A stretch of 61,524 nt of DNA, taken from Candidatus Altiarchaeota archaeon (GTDB lineage: Archaea; Altiarchaeota; Altiarchaeia; IMC4; JBDREA01). Below are positions 4,111 through 37,408 of this stretch, piece after piece. Position 1 is the stretch's first letter, and the number at the start of each line of letters is the position of its first letter. The stretch is from the NCBI GenBank assembly GCA_043820265.1, contig JBDREA010000097.1, forward strand, positions 1 through 61,524, in the 5' to 3' direction. A program made the position numbers and the translations under genes. Below the pieces are notes generated by a model. That model was not told the DNA's origin, searched no databases, and saw nothing but the letters and a program-made list of their open reading frames with translations.

Positions 4111-4495
4111 GTGGAATACCTCCTCATGCCGCGGAGAGCCGGAAACGACGAAGAGCTTCGCTCTTCGTGTTCACGAACAGTGAACTGTTCGTTGAACCCG
4201 GCAATTCATTGCCGGGATGCGAAAGAGACCGAAGGTCTCTTTGTGCGCATGAACGCGAATCGTTCTTCGCGGGAGGCCGCGGCCAATCCGGCTCTCCGGC
4301 ACACAAGCGACACCGATGTGTCGCTGTGCCCACAAACACCCTTGGGGTGTTTGTCGGGTGAAACCCCGCACTCGCTCAAAATCCCCTCGGGATTTCCCTA
4401 ATCAACCTTCGGTTGATTGGGCGCGAAATTCGCGAAGGGAATTTCAGCGTGGCGCACGGGAACACATAGCGTTCCCAGTGTTAGTGCGGGGTTAT
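4111..4495 (+). ncRNA. candidate large structured RNA of unknown class (strand assignment tentative)
   Basis: About 57% G+C by hand count versus about 33% in the 90 nt upstream. No credible ORF. Two perfect 11-bp long-range helices (4132-4142 with 4288-4298; 4362-4372 with 4483-4493) each enclose several perfect hairpins, with two further hairpins (4306-4325, 4332-4354) between them. See findings. Confidence 0.5.
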
Positions 4496-4929
4496 TCATC
4501 CAAAACGAGATGCGAGATATAGCCAAAAAACGCAAACCCGCAGTACACAGGGGACACTAAATACAAGGGCACAGAAAAAAACAAGGCGGCGGCCGGCGTA
4601 TGATAAAGCCTTCGATGCTTGGCGAACCAAAGCAGATACGGAAAGACAGCAAATATTAGAGCCACAAACAACACATAAATATCCGCCCTACCACCCAAAA
4701 ACATACCGATGGAAACGATGACGACAGCCAAGCATATGATGGAAACAGGCTTTCTGATCTTTGACGAAGGAGTGTCGATATCCGGCAAAATTGAATAAAC
4801 CGATCCAATCAATACTCCCACAAAAAAATCCCTAAAACTTATATCAATAAACTCCCCTCTTTCGTTTAAAACAAAAAACAAAAAGGCCAAAAACCAAAAA
4901 CCCACCAGATGAACTCGATAAGAAGGCAT
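4492..4929 (-). CDS. membrane-bound metal-dependent hydrolase-like protein (YdjM/DUF457-like)
   Basis: Polytopic membrane protein starting MPSYRVHLVG..., with PDIDTPSS and a C-terminal HLVLDE, typical of this family. The track N-terminal extension (MASNILEDI...) is encoded by the repeat element and was rejected. Confidence 0.65.
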   Translation of the reverse strand: MPSYRVHLVGFWFLAFLFFVLNERGEFIDISFRDFFVGVLIGSVYSILPDIDTPSSKIRKPVSIICLAVVIVSIGMFLGGRADIYVLFVALIFAVFPYLLWFAKHRRLYHTPAAALFFSVPLYLVSPVYCGFAFFGYISHLVLDE

Positions 4930-4932
4930 GAT

Positions 4933-5040
4933 AAATATAGTGGAGGACATATATATCCGGATAAATTCTATGTCTTCCAATATATTTGAGGCCATAACTG
5001 ATTACAGGACTGTCTAGGAGTTTATGGCCTCAACTATATT
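4933..5040 (-). repeat. double-hairpin promoter-proximal element, copy A
   Basis: Hairpin 1 arms are 4979-4997 and 5022-5040 (AATATATTTGAGGCCATAA / TTATGGCCTCAACTATATT). Hairpin 2 arms are 4942-4950 and 4970-4978 (GGAGGACAT / ATGTCTTCC). Homologous to the copies at 34086-34196 and 36682-36792. Confidence 0.65.
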
Positions 5041-17222: not shown

Positions 17223-18359
17223 CTATTCTTTTCCTTCCTTGGAGATAATCTTAATAACTGGCTCCCCGATCGTTGGGTAGTGTAGCTCTAAGAGGTTGTG
17301 TTCTTCGAGGATCATGGCCCATTCCTCGATTTGGGTTTTGCTGACCCTCAACGCCCTCGCCAGCCTGTCATCTACCTTCAAGGTCTTGTATTTTTGGACG
17401 AGCTCATAAAGCCTGTCTATGCTTGTTTCGACCTTTTCTCCCGCCTCAAAGGATTTGACCTTGATTTTGGGTTCTTCTTCGGGTTTTTTTATCACGGTAA
17501 CGATCCTTTTTCTTTGGATCTCTTCCATGCGCTCCCGTTTTCGGCTGCTCATACCCTTGACTGTGCCGGTTACTGCGGCCATCATCCCCTGCTGTGGCTG
17601 ATTTAGTCTGTGCTGCTGGGCTGCAAGAGCGTTTGCAGCCATATCTGGGGCTGGGTTGCTGATTACAGCGTCAAGGCGGCCTTTCTGGATTTCTTTTGCT
17701 CGCTCGGCTTTTTTCATCTCTTCTTGGCTTGGCATGTTTCCCCCAAAACCTGCTACGTGGGGCATCTTGTCACTTATCCCTGCACCGTCTGGGTGGGGTG
17801 AGGGTCCTTTTCTGATTTCACTTAGCCTATCCCCTCTTAAAGGTTTTGGACTTGTGTGACTTGATCCAAATATGCTGGTTATTCTTCCCAGGCCGAACAT
17901 CCTGGAGTGTCGTACGTTCTTTTCCTGGCTTGCGGCTCCTAGCGGCTGGGGTTGGATTTTTGATATTGTTTCTTTTGGTTTAATGGATTTTATCTTTACT
18001 CCGATTTCGCTGAGCTTTAGGATTGAAGATGCCAGGGCTTCTTGATTATCATCTAAGGAGGTCTTCATATCCTGTTCGTCGAATCGATAGATGTCCAGTC
18101 TTCCTGCCGACCCGGCCATGTGTTCTCTGATACTTGCGAGCGCGTCGTCTCCGAGCAGGACTTTTTTGCCCCCCAACGCCTCAAAGGATGCTCCTCTTAT
18201 GTCTCCGTTTTCGATTAGGATGTCTGCTTGATAGAGGACTTTTTCTACTATCCCCATCAGCCTCATGCATCCTGTGAAGTTAACATCGAGTTCCTTACAG
18301 ACCTGGTAGAAGTCTTTTGTGTTTCTGGGTGTTATGTGGTGGCCTTTGAGGAGATTCAT
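17223..18359 (-). CDS. pilus-locus accessory protein with C-terminal winged-helix-like domain
   Basis: Hypothetical. The C-terminus SIDRLYELVQKYKTLKVDDRLARALRVSKTQIEEWAMILEEHNLLELHYP looks like a wHTH. Directly upstream of the ATPase on the same strand. Start set at ATG 18359. Confidence 0.55.
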   Translation of the reverse strand: MNLLKGHHITPRNTKDFYQVCKELDVNFTGCMRLMGIVEKVLYQADILIENGDIRGASFEALGGKKVLLGDDALASIREHMAGSAGRLDIYRFDEQDMKTSLDDNQEALASSILKLSEIGVKIKSIKPKETISKIQPQPLGAASQEKNVRHSRMFGLGRITSIFGSSHTSPKPLRGDRLSEIRKGPSPHPDGAGISDKMPHVAGFGGNMPSQEEMKKAERAKEIQKGRLDAVISNPAPDMAANALAAQQHRLNQPQQGMMAAVTGTVKGMSSRKRERMEEIQRKRIVTVIKKPEEEPKIKVKSFEAGEKVETSIDRLYELVQKYKTLKVDDRLARALRVSKTQIEEWAMILEEHNLLELHYPTIGEPVIKIISKEGKE

Positions 18360-18527
18360 GGTCTTGGGGTTAGAATAAAAGATATTATAACGAATTGCAT
18401 AAATAAATGAACATTTGGAGTTATGCAATTCGATATATTCGATTGCATAAGTAATCCTTATAAAGTTCAAAAACTTATGTAATCGACTATACTTTCAGAC
18501 ATTAAAAAAAAAGATTTTTTTTTAGAT

Positions 18528-20933
18528 CTAGGCTTTGATTTCGATCGACTCAATGTATACGTAAGTGTCTGAGCTTCCTTTCGCACCTGAGGGATTTTGC
18601 GTTCGAATCCAGCTCCAGGCTTCAAATCTGATTTGTTGGATTGTGTCGTTATCTGGGACTGAACCAATCCAGAATCCTGAGTTACCTTCTTCTATTGGAT
18701 CAGGTTCGTTTGCGGGGCAAGTGCCTGATTCAAGGGGGCAGTTTGGGGTTCCGCTAGGATTACCTATGAATCTATTTGAGGTCTCTGTTCCGTTGTGTGT
18801 CAATTTGATATTTGCCTCCCAGTTTCCACAAATATTTTGTACTTCACATGTGATATTATTTTCGGCCTTCCAAGTAAAGTTTACTTCAGTGAAACAGTTG
18901 TTTGGGAAAAGATTTATCTCGATATATGTTGTTTGTTCTTCTGTTTCTTGGACTCCAATCCCACCTTGTTCCTCGTTGACTTTAGACCAAAGAGTAATAT
19001 TTCCTGCTTCGTCTACACTCCACTCGGTTTTTGCCCCGTTTTCGTCGTCAAATTCTCTTCCTTGGAGTTTAGATGGGCCATAATAATTATCCAAGCTGCC
19101 GTTGTATAGTGTAGTCCATCCCATCGGACAACCCCCACATCCATCCAAAGTTACAGAGGTTCCTGTAGCTGGAGTTTCTTCTGTTCCATTATTGTCTGTT
19201 GCGCGAGCCTGTATTATGTATGTTCCATCGACTCCCGGATCCCATGATATGTTCCATTCATCTGTCCCATTAGCAAGCTCCCAAGTATTGCCTCCATCCC
19301 ATGACACATCGACAATTGTGACGTTTCCGTCTGAATCTGATGAATTTCCTTTGATGAATAAATTACTGGGACAGGTGTCGTATAGGGCTCCGTCAGCGGG
19401 TTCATTGATCTGTGAGGCAGGAGGTTTATTGAACGTGGAAAAGCAGGCTGATGTGAGATTGTCGAGTTCGGCGTGCGGGCAGTCGTAGCGGAAGGAGTAT
19501 GTATAAACTCCCTGGCAGACTCCATATACTTCACAGGCGGAGGTGTTCTGCCAGTAAAGATAGTCCACCCACGTGTCCGAGGTTTTCACAGTTATTCCCC
19601 GCGCCAATAGGTCATATGGGTTAATCAATGATTCAAGCCCGATGTAGGGATTATTGAAATATCTGATGCTGAGATTAACGTATTTTTCGCTCAAATTTAG
19701 TTTTCCGTCCATCCGGTCAAAGAAGCTCGGGCCGTTTTCGTACCGGCTCGGACAGTATGTTCCGTACCCGCTCACATTGCTTACCCTGTAGCATGTGGTG
19801 TTTATCTGGCGGGGATTTATTCCAAGCAATACTTGGTGAGTGCTTCCGTCGTTAAAGAGGTAAATGCAACTGTCTTCTTCGACGGTCAGGGAGTTGTCCG
19901 CTCCGCAGGAGGGGTCGGCTCCCGTGGGGGTGGGGGGTGACAAATCACCTGTTCCGTTTATCCAGGGGATTGTTGCGTTGCATGTCCCCCTGATGGCGTC
20001 TGGATGGTCTTCGTAATCGATGAGGGCTGAAAAAGTCTTTGAGGAATTAGCTAGAAAGCAATCCTGAATGCTTTGGTTGCAGGAGCCGGCATACGCTTGA
20101 TCCATCACCAATACCTTGTCTTTCATTATCTCTCGGTCTGTGTTTTGGCAGTATGTTTCTAGTGCGGCTTGGCTTCCGATCTGCGTTGAGTAAAGAAGGG
20201 CTTCCCCCCCAGATACGCCTATCCCGTTTTGCTGAGCGCATCCTACGACCCCTGATAGTTCGACAAAGTCTGTGCAATTATTCAAGGCTTTGGTTAAAAG
20301 TCCGCCTGATTCCAATGGATAAAGGGGGTCTTCTAAACCGATGATTGACGTCAAAGAAGTGGTTTCGACACTGCTTCCCCGATAAAAGCAGAGCCCGCTC
20401 TCGTCTTCCACGTTCAGTGAATTGTTGATGATTATCGCAAAGGTGAACGCGTCATATGGGACAATCGTGATGTTGTTCAATGTGATGTTTATCTTGAAGT
20501 TCATGTCGCTTTCAAGAGCCATCATCTTATCTATCCAAACCGGAAGGGTATGGTTTTTCATGTCGCTTATGTTGTTTCCCCCTACTGTTGCGCACATCAT
20601 CAGCTCGGCTATGGCCGCTCTTGAACCGACTTCGCTATACTGGAATGAGGAGCAGTTATTATAGGTGTAGCTCTCAAGAGGTTGGTTGTTGGATACGATA
20701 TAGTCGATGGAGTAGATAGTGGCTCTTCGGCCGAACACCGACATGGCCCTGTCCAGGTCTCTTTTTATGTCTTCGACAAAATACTGGAGCTCGTCGCAGC
20801 GTATTTTTCCAGCCGCATCATCCACTGATTCCTGCTGCTGGGTTGAGGTGAAAGTGACTAAAAGGAGGAATGGTATGGCCAGAAGTAGGATGGCTATTGT
20901 GAAAAAGTATCCTTTGTTGTTTTTTACGGTCAT
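18528..20933 (-). CDS. giant prepilin-like surface protein (801 aa) with Ig-like C-terminal region
   Basis: Class III signal-peptide-like N-terminus MTVKNNKG/YFFTIAILLLAIPFLLLV. A large Cys/Asn-rich ectodomain includes an Ig-like stretch NVTIVDVSWDGGNTWELANGTDEWNISWDPGVDGTYIIQARATDNNG. Start set at ATG 20933, 6 nt from the upstream gene's stop. Confidence 0.75.
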   Translation of the reverse strand: MTVKNNKGYFFTIAILLLAIPFLLLVTFTSTQQQESVDDAAGKIRCDELQYFVEDIKRDLDRAMSVFGRRATIYSIDYIVSNNQPLESYTYNNCSSFQYSEVGSRAAIAELMMCATVGGNNISDMKNHTLPVWIDKMMALESDMNFKINITLNNITIVPYDAFTFAIIINNSLNVEDESGLCFYRGSSVETTSLTSIIGLEDPLYPLESGGLLTKALNNCTDFVELSGVVGCAQQNGIGVSGGEALLYSTQIGSQAALETYCQNTDREIMKDKVLVMDQAYAGSCNQSIQDCFLANSSKTFSALIDYEDHPDAIRGTCNATIPWINGTGDLSPPTPTGADPSCGADNSLTVEEDSCIYLFNDGSTHQVLLGINPRQINTTCYRVSNVSGYGTYCPSRYENGPSFFDRMDGKLNLSEKYVNLSIRYFNNPYIGLESLINPYDLLARGITVKTSDTWVDYLYWQNTSACEVYGVCQGVYTYSFRYDCPHAELDNLTSACFSTFNKPPASQINEPADGALYDTCPSNLFIKGNSSDSDGNVTIVDVSWDGGNTWELANGTDEWNISWDPGVDGTYIIQARATDNNGTEETPATGTSVTLDGCGGCPMGWTTLYNGSLDNYYGPSKLQGREFDDENGAKTEWSVDEAGNITLWSKVNEEQGGIGVQETEEQTTYIEINLFPNNCFTEVNFTWKAENNITCEVQNICGNWEANIKLTHNGTETSNRFIGNPSGTPNCPLESGTCPANEPDPIEEGNSGFWIGSVPDNDTIQQIRFEAWSWIRTQNPSGAKGSSDTYVYIESIEIKA

Positions 20934-34085: not shown

Positions 34086-34196
34086 GTATATAGTTGAGGT
34101 CATAATTACATGGGCATTCCAGGGTTAATTATGACCTCAAATATATTGGAGGACATTAAATATAGCCCAAATAATTATGTCCTCCACTATAAAAGA
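34086..34196 (+). repeat. double-hairpin promoter-proximal element, copy B
   Basis: Hairpin 1 arms are 34087-34104 and 34129-34146 (ATATAGTTGAGGTCATAA / TTATGACCTCAAATATAT). Hairpin 2 arms are 34148-34156 and 34177-34185 (GGAGGACAT / ATGTCCTCC). It is followed by ACTATAAAAG, then ATG at 34218. Confidence 0.65.
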
Positions 34197-35189: not shown

Positions 35190-36659
35190 CTACTCTATAA
35201 TGGATTTACGCCTCTCAAAATCTCCTGCAATAGGTTTCCTTTTCGGTGTAGTTTCAAAATCATCCCCTCTTTTCTGTGTTTCTGCCTGCTTTATTTTTGG
35301 CGCCAGATAAGCTTCTCTCTTGATAACCCTTGAGAGCGATTGATTGATGAATCTGCCCTCATAGTAAGGCAAATATACTACTCCCTTGTGATGCACTTCT
35401 CCCCAGAAAATGCTTTTCAGTATCTGTTCGATGTCTTTTGAGCGGTAACGGGTTTGGTCGAATTCGAAGTCTTCCTCCAAGCCCTCTTCCACATCTATGA
35501 ATTCTTTCAGGTTGTATATCCCCCTGACGTGGTGCGGCATCTTTACCTTGGCTCCGACTTGGCGGTCTTCTTCTTTTTCCTGGGGCTTTGATTCGGTCCC
35601 CCCGTTTCCTTCTCCTCCGGTGAAGCTTCCGAAGATGTCGAGGAATTCGTCCAATATTAAAACGATTATGCTTTGGATGAATCCGACTATTTCTTGGGCG
35701 CGCGTTGTCGTCTTTCTGTCGCTTAGGTTATAGATATGGACTACCCCTCTTTTTTCAAGTATGGATAGGTGCTTTCCGACAAGGTGTTCGTGGGGTAGAT
35801 CTCCGTGCTCTAGGAGGTCGATTAAATGGGACTTTGACTCTGGCGGCAGAAGGAGGATATCTTCGATTATCGTTGAAGTCTTTAACTCATTCTCTGGTGG
35901 TTCGCTTTTTCTTGCTAGAAACCCTTTTTTTTGGGGGGTTCCCCTTAACATGTAATATAATTCGCCGTTGTTTAGGTTGACGTACAGAGATTCTTCGTCG
36001 TGAAGCATAGCGCCTTCCTTTTCAGCAGACTTTATTCTTGATTCATCAATGTCTGTTATCAAGAAAACCCCCACTGGGGTATATCGTCCCTCGACCCTTA
36101 ATCCCCTGTCCTTTTTTGCTATTATGTGAGAGGGGATTTTTTTCAATCTTTCCGCAAAGTACTCTTTTGCTTCACTTAATGTTTTTCCAATTTTGAAGGA
36201 GTGTTTTTCGGTTTGATAGTATTTTTCAGCCAAACCGTATTTGTCTAAAAGGTTCACAAAGTCTTCCTCGAGCTCTACCCCAGACATGCTCAGGCTTTCA
36301 AACAATCTGTACCTGTTCACCAGACTTAAAGGTTTTCCTGCGGCATATGCGTGGGCTTCCTCTGCGAAGTCGCTTGTCGTGACGTAGGCTGCCCGGACCG
36401 CACCCATCTTTTTCATGTCGTCGAAGAGTTTTTGGACGTCCGACTCCATGATCTTTTCAGTGGAGGTTTTGGCTCGTATAAGGCTTAGAACTGAACCCCC
36501 CAATGGGTTCGCTGATTTGGCTATGACATCTACGACGCCGTCTCTGTCCCTCTTTAGGGATTCCACTTCGAATCCCATCTTGGCGACGAATTGAGATATC
36601 ATCTTCTCAAAGTCGTAGGGATCGATTTCTGAGGAAATGTAGTCTTTTTGTTCGACCAT
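35190..36659 (-). CDS. Mrr-like restriction-endonuclease-domain protein with large uncharacterised C-terminal region
   Basis: The N-terminus FEKMISQFVAKMGFEVESLKRDRDGVVDVIAKS...LSLIRAKT fits the Mrr_cat (D-x(n)-(D/E)xK-like) pattern. The remaining 350 aa or so are unassigned. Confidence 0.6.
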   Translation of the reverse strand: MVEQKDYISSEIDPYDFEKMISQFVAKMGFEVESLKRDRDGVVDVIAKSANPLGGSVLSLIRAKTSTEKIMESDVQKLFDDMKKMGAVRAAYVTTSDFAEEAHAYAAGKPLSLVNRYRLFESLSMSGVELEEDFVNLLDKYGLAEKYYQTEKHSFKIGKTLSEAKEYFAERLKKIPSHIIAKKDRGLRVEGRYTPVGVFLITDIDESRIKSAEKEGAMLHDEESLYVNLNNGELYYMLRGTPQKKGFLARKSEPPENELKTSTIIEDILLLPPESKSHLIDLLEHGDLPHEHLVGKHLSILEKRGVVHIYNLSDRKTTTRAQEIVGFIQSIIVLILDEFLDIFGSFTGGEGNGGTESKPQEKEEDRQVGAKVKMPHHVRGIYNLKEFIDVEEGLEEDFEFDQTRYRSKDIEQILKSIFWGEVHHKGVVYLPYYEGRFINQSLSRVIKREAYLAPKIKQAETQKRGDDFETTPKRKPIAGDFERRKSIIE

Positions 36660-36681: not shown

Positions 36682-36792
36682 TTATAGTCGAGGACTTAAT
36701 TACCTGGATTAATTTTTATGTCCTCGAATATATTTGAGGCCCTAACTTATCCTAATTCAGTCCATAACGTTGGGGCCTCAACTATAAATATA
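36682..36792 (-). repeat. double-hairpin promoter-proximal element, copy C
   Basis: Hairpin 2 arms are 36688-36695 and 36720-36727 (TCGAGGAC / GTCCTCGA). Hairpin 1 arms are 36727-36746 and 36769-36789. The orientation points toward the Mrr-like gene, whose ATG is at 36659. Confidence 0.6.
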
Positions 36793-36853: not shown

Positions 36854-37408
36854 TTATTTTTTAGTCTTGACTTTTTCCAATCCATAGTCGTAGCCTGCCT
36901 CAAACGCCTTCTGGTTTAACTCTAATGTTCCCGAAGGTACTGAAGAAAGTATGGATTCCTTCATAGCTTGAAAGCTGACTGCGCCGGTCACCGCCGTAAA
37001 GAACCCTAGCATTATGATGTTGGCGACTATCCTTCTTCCGATTTTTTCGGCCATTTTACTTGCCGGTATTGAGTAAAACTTCGTGTTTCCTTCGATTGTA
37101 CCTGTTTTAACTAAGTCTTCCTCGACGATCAGATAGCCGTCATTTTTTAGCTGGGGAAAAAACTTTGAGTAGGCTTCTTGGGACATGGCAACCAGTATGT
37201 CAGGGGCGATGAGCTTGGGGTAATCCACTACGTCGTCTGATATTATAACGTTCGCCGAACATGCACCTCCGCGAGCCTCAGGACCGTATGCCTGGGTTAA
37301 GGTGGCATTCTTTTTGTCGTATATGGCGGCAGCTTTCCCGATGATGTATCCTGAAAGGATTATTCCTTGGCCTCCGAATCCGCCAATCTTGATTTCTGTC
37401 CTCGTCAT
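36854..37408 (-). CDS. 2-oxoacid:ferredoxin oxidoreductase, gamma subunit
   Basis: IGGFGGQGIILSGYIIGKAA... is the typical gamma subunit start. Last gene of the delta-alpha-beta-gamma operon. Confidence 0.9.
   Translation of the reverse strand: MTRTEIKIGGFGGQGIILSGYIIGKAAAIYDKKNATLTQAYGPEARGGACSANVIISDDVVDYPKLIAPDILVAMSQEAYSKFFPQLKNDGYLIVEEDLVKTGTIEGNTKFYSIPASKMAEKIGRRIVANIIMLGFFTAVTGAVSFQAMKESILSSVPSGTLELNQKAFEAGYDYGLEKVKTKK

Follow-up and report, generated by a model that had tools for sequence, protein, structure and literature searches.

Hairpin-doublet repeats beside promoters in an Altiarchaeota genome: a probable family of non-autonomous mobile elements

Copies in the window and the structure of the element

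The window analysed here is the whole of contig C97 (61,524 nt) of a Candidatus Altiarchaeota genome, G000, whose assembly comprises 1.97 Mb with 45% GC in 172 contigs and is 82% complete. A preliminary description of this DNA reported three copies of a double-hairpin element, and all three were found where it had placed them, with limits that can now be refined to ends reading TATAG...CTATA. Its count was nevertheless too low, as a fourth copy is present in the window and many more in the genome. A covariance model, R1, was built from 21 full copies, and its scores are given with the features of the window below.

4936..5038, minus strand: copy A, full element (R1 102.4 bits), with hairpin 1 at 5038-4981 and hairpin 2 at 4984-4936
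18386..18491, minus strand: fourth copy, of a sister subfamily (R1 73.2 bits; fold z-score -5.95)
34089..34191, plus strand: copy B, full element, TATAG...CTATA, 103 nt (R1 106.9 bits)
34089..34145, plus strand: hairpin 1 of copy B, arms 34089-34105 and 34129-34145, 17 bp, loop of 23 nt
34142..34191, plus strand: hairpin 2 of copy B, arms 34142-34156 and 34177-34191, loop of 20 nt
36683..36786, minus strand: copy C, full element (R1 112.3 bits), with hairpin 1 at 36786-36729 and hairpin 2 at about 36732-36683

Copy B occupies the divergent gap between gatB (start 34060, minus strand) and a methyltransferase gene (start 34218, plus strand). The start codon of ydjM, at 4929, follows the end of copy A, and that of an Mrr gene, at 36659, follows the end of copy C, on whose other side a POR gamma subunit gene has its stop at 36854. 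The start codons described shortly after the three copies are thus indeed present, at 7, 27 and 24 nt from copies A, B and C, respectively, and the products that they begin are functionally unrelated, as had been noted: YdjM (former DUF457), a UPF0020-type methyltransferase and an Mrr_cat protein. A 17-nt arm motif, TATAGTTGAGGYCMYAA, matched six times in the window with at most one mismatch, once for each hairpin 1 arm, and was not found in 100 shuffles. The fourth copy keeps the skeleton TATAG - hairpin - ATATAT - hairpin - TTATA with stems of the CGAATTGC type, a subfamily that also occurs in the genomes G006, G013 and G035. It lies within a pilus locus between two minus-strand ORFs: read on that strand, the stop of the ORF at 18528-20933 precedes it by 31 nt, and the start of the ORF at 17223-18359 follows it after 20 nt.

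The element measures about 104 nt, and the TATA-like boxes that had been described at its ends and in its middle correspond to the terminal TATAG and CTATA and to a central TATA that belongs to both hairpins (34142-34145 in copy B). The preliminary description recognised neither the other copies nor the fact that the element consists of one unit of about 55 nt repeated in inverted orientation; the reverse complement of hairpin 2, its loop as well, is a unit of the hairpin-1 type. Each unit is laid out as TATAG - 12-bp variable stem - CATAA - loop - TTATG - stem' - AATATA. The consensus of the first half is TATAG-TTG-NNNN-CATAA-(loop of about 24)-TTATG-NNNN-CAA-ATATAT, and after ATATAT the second half reads TTG-NNNN-CAYAA-(loop of about 17)-TTRTG-NNNN-CAA-CTATA. 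A loop motif, CTTTCTnGAC, adjoins the outer arm in both units and is included in the terminal inverted repeats, which comprise the outer 28 nt or so. The ends themselves are near-invariant (TATAGTTGAGG / CCTCAACTATA), while the variable 4-nt core differs between them. Hairpin 1 of copy B also shows a conserved G.A mismatch at position 5 of its arms.

Variations on this plan are numerous. Loci are 90-215 nt long, non-coding and spread over many contigs, and those that seemed to be single hairpins proved to be doublets once inspected. About 11 longer loci carry one to five small GC-rich hairpins, with 8-9-bp stems and loops of 3-5 nt, placed in the central TATA, and such nesting is present in another genus too. 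Other subfamilies, recovered by a palindrome scan, have the same skeleton with different stems (e.g., TATAGCGAATTGCATAA). A minimal doublet of 62 nt was also observed at G003:C4:58306-58377 (TATAGCGGATGTCATAAATTATGACATCCGATATATCCGACGACATATGTCGTCGGCTATAG). Because this doublet is nearly loopless, the loops appear to be dispensable, whereas the TATAG / ATATAT / CTATA skeleton is kept.

Folding of each copy gives a pair of neighbouring hairpins (z-scores from -5 to -8 for DNA and of -6.4 for RNA), which supports the two-hairpin fold first proposed, and the compensatory differences quoted for the stems are real: GAGGTC/GACCTC in one copy stands against GAGGCC/GGCCTC in another, and TCGAGGAC/GTCCTCGA against TGGAGGAC/GTCCTCCA. 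Across the 21 copies, pairing was standard in 96.6% of cells, as opposed to 83.8% after shuffling and 33-47% when partners were slid. Both sides had changed in 17 of 28 pairs (69 cells), and none of 500 shuffles matched any of five measures, although the copies are related and these shuffle statistics therefore overstate independence. Copies from other genomes, which lay outside model building, were paired in 93.3% of cells versus 73.4% when shuffled, a figure obtained on an alignment fitted to the model and with both strands of each locus counted. The earlier view that the covariation reflects a constraint on pairing, and not a fixed protein-binding sequence, is thus borne out.

The left arm of hairpin 1 and the right arm of hairpin 2 do not covary (82.9% paired versus 82.1% shuffled), and a simple hairpin formed by the terminal inverted repeats was rejected on this ground; since the outer arms do not covary, the constraint on pairing is local to each hairpin. 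The stem cores of hairpins 1 and 2 assort independently. Within one stem type, the loops vary at many positions and 34 stem bases are near constant. On the top strand, G.T pairs outnumber A.C pairs by 17 to 6, a weak hint that a single strand is used.

Distribution, empty sites and position relative to promoters

BLAST, nhmmer and R1 together identified about 40 loci in the 1.97-Mb genome, or about 40 to 50 when the sister subfamilies from the palindrome scan are included. R1 matches were found in 9 to 10 of the 61 genomes of the phylum, all in one order, and they are patchy even within genera: G029 is positive and four of its congeners lack the element, and the same is true of G051 and three of its congeners. 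Most copies are old, with a median pairwise identity of about 55%, and there is one recent pair at 95.6%. Hairpin-1 units of G051, which belongs to another family, (contigs C19, C7 and C4) are identical over about 28 nt to those of the G000 locus C24:9489-9592, of the GCGGTC subfamily, whereas gene identity between congeners is only about 70%. Given this near identity of units against the divergence of genes, horizontal spread is suggested, and the sequences suggest that the element may have been transferred between families. Exact-protein look-up found no close strains for insertion polymorphism, a scan of metagenome proteins found no relative, and no hit came from searching metagenome and viral contigs by pattern.

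Comparison of orthologous regions, which had been proposed as a check, was informative. A congener, G001, holds the syntenic gatB-methyltransferase-Mrr-POR block with no element in its gaps: the gatB-methyltransferase gap measures 45 nt in G001 and 157 nt in G000, and the Mrr-POR gap about 68 nt and 194 nt, respectively. Conversely, five G001 copies are at sites that are empty in G000, and, with the two reverse cases, this makes seven orthologous sites at which no insertion is common to both genomes. The cleanest pair reads ...GGAGGAGTTTAT|TATAG-90 nt-CTATA|TTTCCTATT in G001, where the site is filled, and ...AGAGGAGTTTAT|TA|TTTCTCATT in G000, where it is empty, the filled site being longer, at a single TA, by the element less 2 bp. 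Another pair agrees, with ...CTAT|TA|AGC against ...CTAT|TATAG...CTATA|CTAGG and a difference of 102 nt for an element of 104 nt. A single TA is present at the empty site, and one at each end of the element at the filled site. As TA is palindromic, this fits either a 2-bp duplication or an insertion beside TA; the net gain is either a duplication of the TA target or an equivalent 2-nt terminal redundancy. No direct repeat beyond TATA gave a signal in the flanks, and a longer duplication was rejected for that reason. The flanks do show a preference for T before the element and for A or T after it. The copies are therefore short, non-coding, multiple and dispersed, with terminal inverted repeats and with presence or absence at orthologous sites, as expected of a MITE. 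Of the options first listed for this DNA, among which the preliminary description made no choice, the one of a MITE or REP-like palindromic repeat agrees with these dispersed copies, their patchy distribution, the empty orthologous sites and the insertion at TA.

Paralogous promoters were also tried as empty sites, but the upstream regions of three pilin-like paralogues are not homologous. These paralogous proteins of 114 aa match T4SS_pilin / TrbC-VirB2 (G000:C140:5071-5415, C123:720-1070 and C51:20686-21033), and one of them lies 23 nt from a long element. To our knowledge, conjugation-type pilins are unusual in an archaeal genome.

The element had been said to lie always upstream of a gene start. 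As a strong bias this holds, but not as a rule: with gene starts and gap classes taken from a crude, simple ORF caller, 26 of 50 loci are in divergent gaps, 16 in tandem gaps and 8 between convergent genes. The expectation by gap number is 13.8, 29.0 and 7.2, respectively (p = 2e-4), and, weighted by TATA occurrences, it is 19.1, 26.0 and 4.9 (p = 0.016). Because the divergent excess persists after this weighting, TATA density explains part, but not all, of the bias. For the 20 loci of G029 and G051, the corresponding counts are 9, 10 and 1. Orientation with respect to the adjacent gene is random (5 versus 6).

Throughout the genome, TATA motifs are most frequent between -35 and -26 relative to the start codon, and a minority of genes have a Shine-Dalgarno-like motif at -15 to -6. 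Of 40 genes that adjoin a copy, 21 have one of its terminal TATAs 22-39 nt upstream of their start, whereas in the background 21% of upstream TATAs fall in that interval (p = 1e-5); the proportion is 9 of 21 in G029 and G051 (p = 0.02), where eight of the distances are 25-30 nt. The start codons on the two sides of copy B are each about 30 nt from a terminal TATA, and no other TATA is available to gatB in the 157-nt gap that separates it from the methyltransferase gene. On contig C117, the terminal TATAs are 37 and 36 nt from the flanking starts. A crude alignment of native TATA boxes gave no clear consensus for comparison of a BRE-like motif. These distances favour a modified form of the mobile promoter cassette that had been suggested, in which it is the terminal TATAs that stand at promoter distance.

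Candidate mobilising enzymes

No autonomous partner with the same ends was found with the PF01797, PF13358 and PF13586 panels, among the ends of resident insertion sequences (ISs) or by an R1 scan around transposase genes. This absence refers to the assembled part of the genome, and the mobilising enzyme may lie outside the assembled 82%. The resident elements that were considered are as follows.

G000:C94:8476-10079, minus strand: IS605-type element, in which tnpA (Y1, 132 aa) overlaps tnpB (402 aa)
G000:C25:17897-18798 and C77:6919-7900: multi-copy IS of about 1.1 kb with DDE_Tnp_1, also present at contig ends
Ends of contigs C18, C34, C160, C159, C127, C140 and C130: the same multi-copy IS
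Ends of contigs C123, C60, C59, C11, C10, C50 and C39: the same multi-copy IS

The single Y1_Tnp gene of G000 is the tnpA of this IS605, which is accompanied by a tnpB with OrfB_IS605 and Cas12f1-like TNB domains and whose left-end hairpin, ATCCCAC...GTGGGAT, is unrelated to the element. Y1_Tnp genes occur in 5 to 6 of 9 element-bearing genomes and in about 8 of 32 others, but none was found in G029, which has about 14 copies of the element, nor in G013 or G035, and an R1 scan of five relatives located no element-like hairpins beside their Y1 genes. A mobiliser of the RAYT/IS200 type was therefore set aside. An IS630 (DDE_3) mobiliser was rejected as well, this domain being absent from G000, G001, G029, G036 and G051 and the IS630 copy of G006 having unrelated ends; the IS427/IS1031 type (DDE_Tnp_1_2) is present only in G036.

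The multi-copy DDE_Tnp_1 element has inverted repeats GGCTTTGTAGAAA and an 8-bp duplication (e.g., GAATACTA, AATTACTT, CCAAAACT and GAAACTTT) and is hence unrelated. At least nine of its copies are at contig ends, and it interrupts the assembly in nine or more places. Integron attC sites and CRISPR were also dropped, as the copies are single and dispersed in promoter gaps and not arrayed.

Interpretation and related systems

We consider it probable that the element is a non-autonomous mobile hairpin-doublet MITE, similar in kind to Correia elements or REPINs, that inserts at TA and tolerates or rebuilds promoters. TA-rich DNA resembling a TATA box would be its preferred landing site, and TATA would be regenerated at both ends, such that insertions in promoters, shared bidirectional ones included, could keep or supply a TATA box some 25-35 nt before the flanking starts. 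It is because the ends would rebuild TATA that insertions would be tolerated and copies found beside gene starts. The constraint on pairing would most likely act when the mobilising enzyme handles the element as single-stranded or cruciform DNA; that it acts on DNA and not on RNA can be argued because, in a divergent gap, both promoters would have the body of the element upstream of them. Several observations speak against a mobile element. The copies are mostly old and diverged, unlike those of a recently active MITE, and their pairing may instead be maintained in situ, through a host function or palindrome-templated correction. Moreover, no cognate transposase was present among those searched, and a simple DDE transposase that recognises terminal inverted repeats leaves the pairing of the internal arms unexplained.

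Among the other explanations, it is unlikely, although several features of the element would suit it, that the family is of the REPIN or IS200/IS605-PATE type, moved as single-stranded DNA beside TA by an HUH (Y1) enzyme with no true duplication; its stems would then covary since the enzyme reads the shape of the hairpin. The inverted doublet, whose partners differ in loop length and stem as in REP dimers (PMC3733652), the strictly local covariation, the top-strand excess of G.T pairs and the somewhat higher frequency of Y1_Tnp in element-bearing genomes all point this way. They have to be set against the sole Y1 gene of G000, which belongs to an ordinary tnpA-tnpB pair with an unrelated end hairpin, against the element-bearing genomes with no Y1 match and the Y1 genes with no R1-like hairpin beside them, and against the missing GTAG or CGTC tag; RAYT-type Y1 subclasses, furthermore, have not been seen in archaea (PMC6006769). 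The pairing could instead be under host selection in place, in a promoter or insulator module that supplies or separates bidirectional TATA-box promoters or tunes them through a cruciform. The three TATA motifs about 52 bp apart would fit such a module, as would the terminal TATAs at canonical distance on one or both sides, the lack of any other TATA for gatB in its gap, and the stems that remain intact in copies that have diverged to about 55-80% identity and whose loops drift. We nonetheless regard this as improbable, for the orthologous genes of the congener manage without the element, 8 of the 50 copies are in convergent gaps, the spacing to start codons varies, stem sequences vary freely among copies and the distribution among relatives is patchy. 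A host-serving module could, in any case, have originated as a mobile element, and the two readings do not truly exclude each other.

The preliminary description had also considered a small RNA or a 5′ leader, and structured small RNAs or leader and trailer hairpins that act on the stability, processing or translation of neighbouring transcripts would account for the strong folding as RNA, the compensatory changes with some G-U pairs and the UUCG/UACG-type loops of the small nested hairpins, and in tandem contexts the element would fall in the 3′ region of the upstream gene. This explanation is not supported by the analysis and seems very unlikely: Rfam 15 at gathering thresholds gave no match in the whole window, both orientations to the adjacent gene are about equally frequent, around half of the copies are in divergent gaps and upstream of both likely TATA boxes, and orthologous loci without the element, its patchiness among relatives and its transposon-like insertion at TA are not what an RNA would lead one to expect. 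Far less credible still is an operator, that is, a palindromic transcription-factor site that controls a regulon. The palindromes do adjoin promoters, but their half-sites covary and are not conserved, many stem cores coexist in one genome, the neighbouring genes are functionally unrelated and orthologous promoters lack the element.

If the element is indeed a mobile hairpin doublet, its closest counterparts are bacterial. The Correia elements (CREE/NEMIS) of Neisseria are 104-108 or 153-157 bp long, duplicate their target and lie mostly 5′ of genes; a promoter element in their first bases gives promoters at either or both ends, their termini read TATAG[CT]GGATTAA, and the mechanism that mobilises them is described as undetermined (PMC2649163, PMC10969869). 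The archaeal element shares with them its size class, its non-coding nature, terminal inverted repeats of about 26-28 nt and ends that form hairpins. Judging from the sequences, it would also share their position mostly 5′ of genes, with a TATA at promoter distance in one case and a promoter element at the ends in the other, and its gain at TA, by a 2-bp duplication or insertion beside TA, may correspond to their target duplication. In addition, the first 9-11 nt of some archaeal subfamilies (TATAGTGGAGG, TATAGCGGATG) are those of the Correia terminus. Of the 26-bp Correia repeat, TATAG[CT]GGATTAA(CAAAAA/ATTTAAA)..., only these first 9-11 nt agree, and the remainder is unrelated; a match so short could be due to chance, and it may serve as a lead but not as proof of kinship. 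There are further differences. The Correia elements have a bacterial host and a sigma-70 -10 box, and the archaeal one an archaeal TATA box; Correia elements pair end to end in one long hairpin, whereas the archaeal element pairs locally with outer arms that do not covary, and it contains no IHF site.

REPINs and BIMEs are likewise inverted hairpin doublets of about 100 bp in which the length of the stem or loop is unequal between partners; they are extragenic, form mosaics with small palindromes and conserve pairing above sequence (PMC3733652, PMC3116915), all of which is true of the archaeal element. Unlike the REPIN/REP-RAYT system, the latter has no RAYT that could be found, and its tag is TATAG instead of GTAG or CGTC. 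It is also present in tens of copies, and not hundreds, is much more diverged, shows a net gain at TA and lies on the promoter side of genes, where REPINs lie on the 3′ side. REPINs have been stated to be undetected in archaea (bioRxiv 10.1101/2021.07.10.451892), and the archaeal Y1 proteins that are known are of the IS200 type only (PMC6006769). With IS630/Tc1-mariner (Stowaway-type) MITEs, the element has in common an insertion at TA, a TA at both ends, a short length, AT-rich flanks and a non-coding, intergenic nature. MITEs that derive from IS630 and duplicate TA need no internally paired ends. The element also differs from them in that no DDE_3 gene accompanies it in the five genomes named above and the IS630 repeats of G006 are unrelated. 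It is similarly unlike the IS200/IS605-derived PATE, since the resident IS605 end hairpin is unrelated and the archaeal units are inverted, while PATE hairpins are direct.

Small palindromic mobile repeats such as REP/REPIN and Correia sequences are well studied in bacteria and barely so in archaea. The present family offers a defined and searchable archaeal example, for which a covariance model, well-marked ends, a target and one documented empty site are now available. Its position at promoters bears on gene annotation and regulation in uncultivated, compact genomes, and many of the intergenic “structured RNA” candidates and TATA boxes of G000 are parts of the element. The family is notable for its targeting of TA or TATA at promoters, for its strictly local stem covariation and for the absence of a mover from the searches described, and we know of no transposition mechanism that explains such covariation together with a gain at TA. 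It may therefore help to find a new mobilising enzyme, which could be akin to the one that moves Correia elements. Should the terminal TATAs be functional, insertion would offer a ready-made route to rewire or duplicate archaeal promoters. A bolder proposal, possible but doubtful, is that of an archaeal Correia/REPIN-like replicator that depends on an enzyme requiring local hairpins, inserts at a TA within TATA-box-like DNA and rebuilds TATA at its ends, in which case the shared TATAGYGGA would reflect one transposase family at work in both domains. Promoters, bidirectional ones among them, could be split, moved or donated by such a replicator.

That small inverted-repeat elements abound in the Altiarchaeum lineage has been recorded before. 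In a census of MITEs, Ca. Altiarchaeum hamiconexum was the archaeon with the highest density, 146 per Mb, although that work gives counts and no account of the structure, target, covariation or promoters of the families (PMC11602168). The window itself contains, in the GC-rich block at 4111-4495 that adjoins copy A, an array of small perfect hairpins with 8-10-bp stems and loops such as TTCG, GAAG and ATCG, which match in kind the modules that the long elements carry within their central TATA. Similar hairpins are present at G000:C98:28235-28392, C2:6694-6838, C23:4935-5043 and other places. Genome-wide, there are 316 small GC-rich hairpins, as opposed to 64 in a shuffled genome, and they form 56 clusters; these modules look like a second, BIME-like family in which the stem sequences are not conserved.
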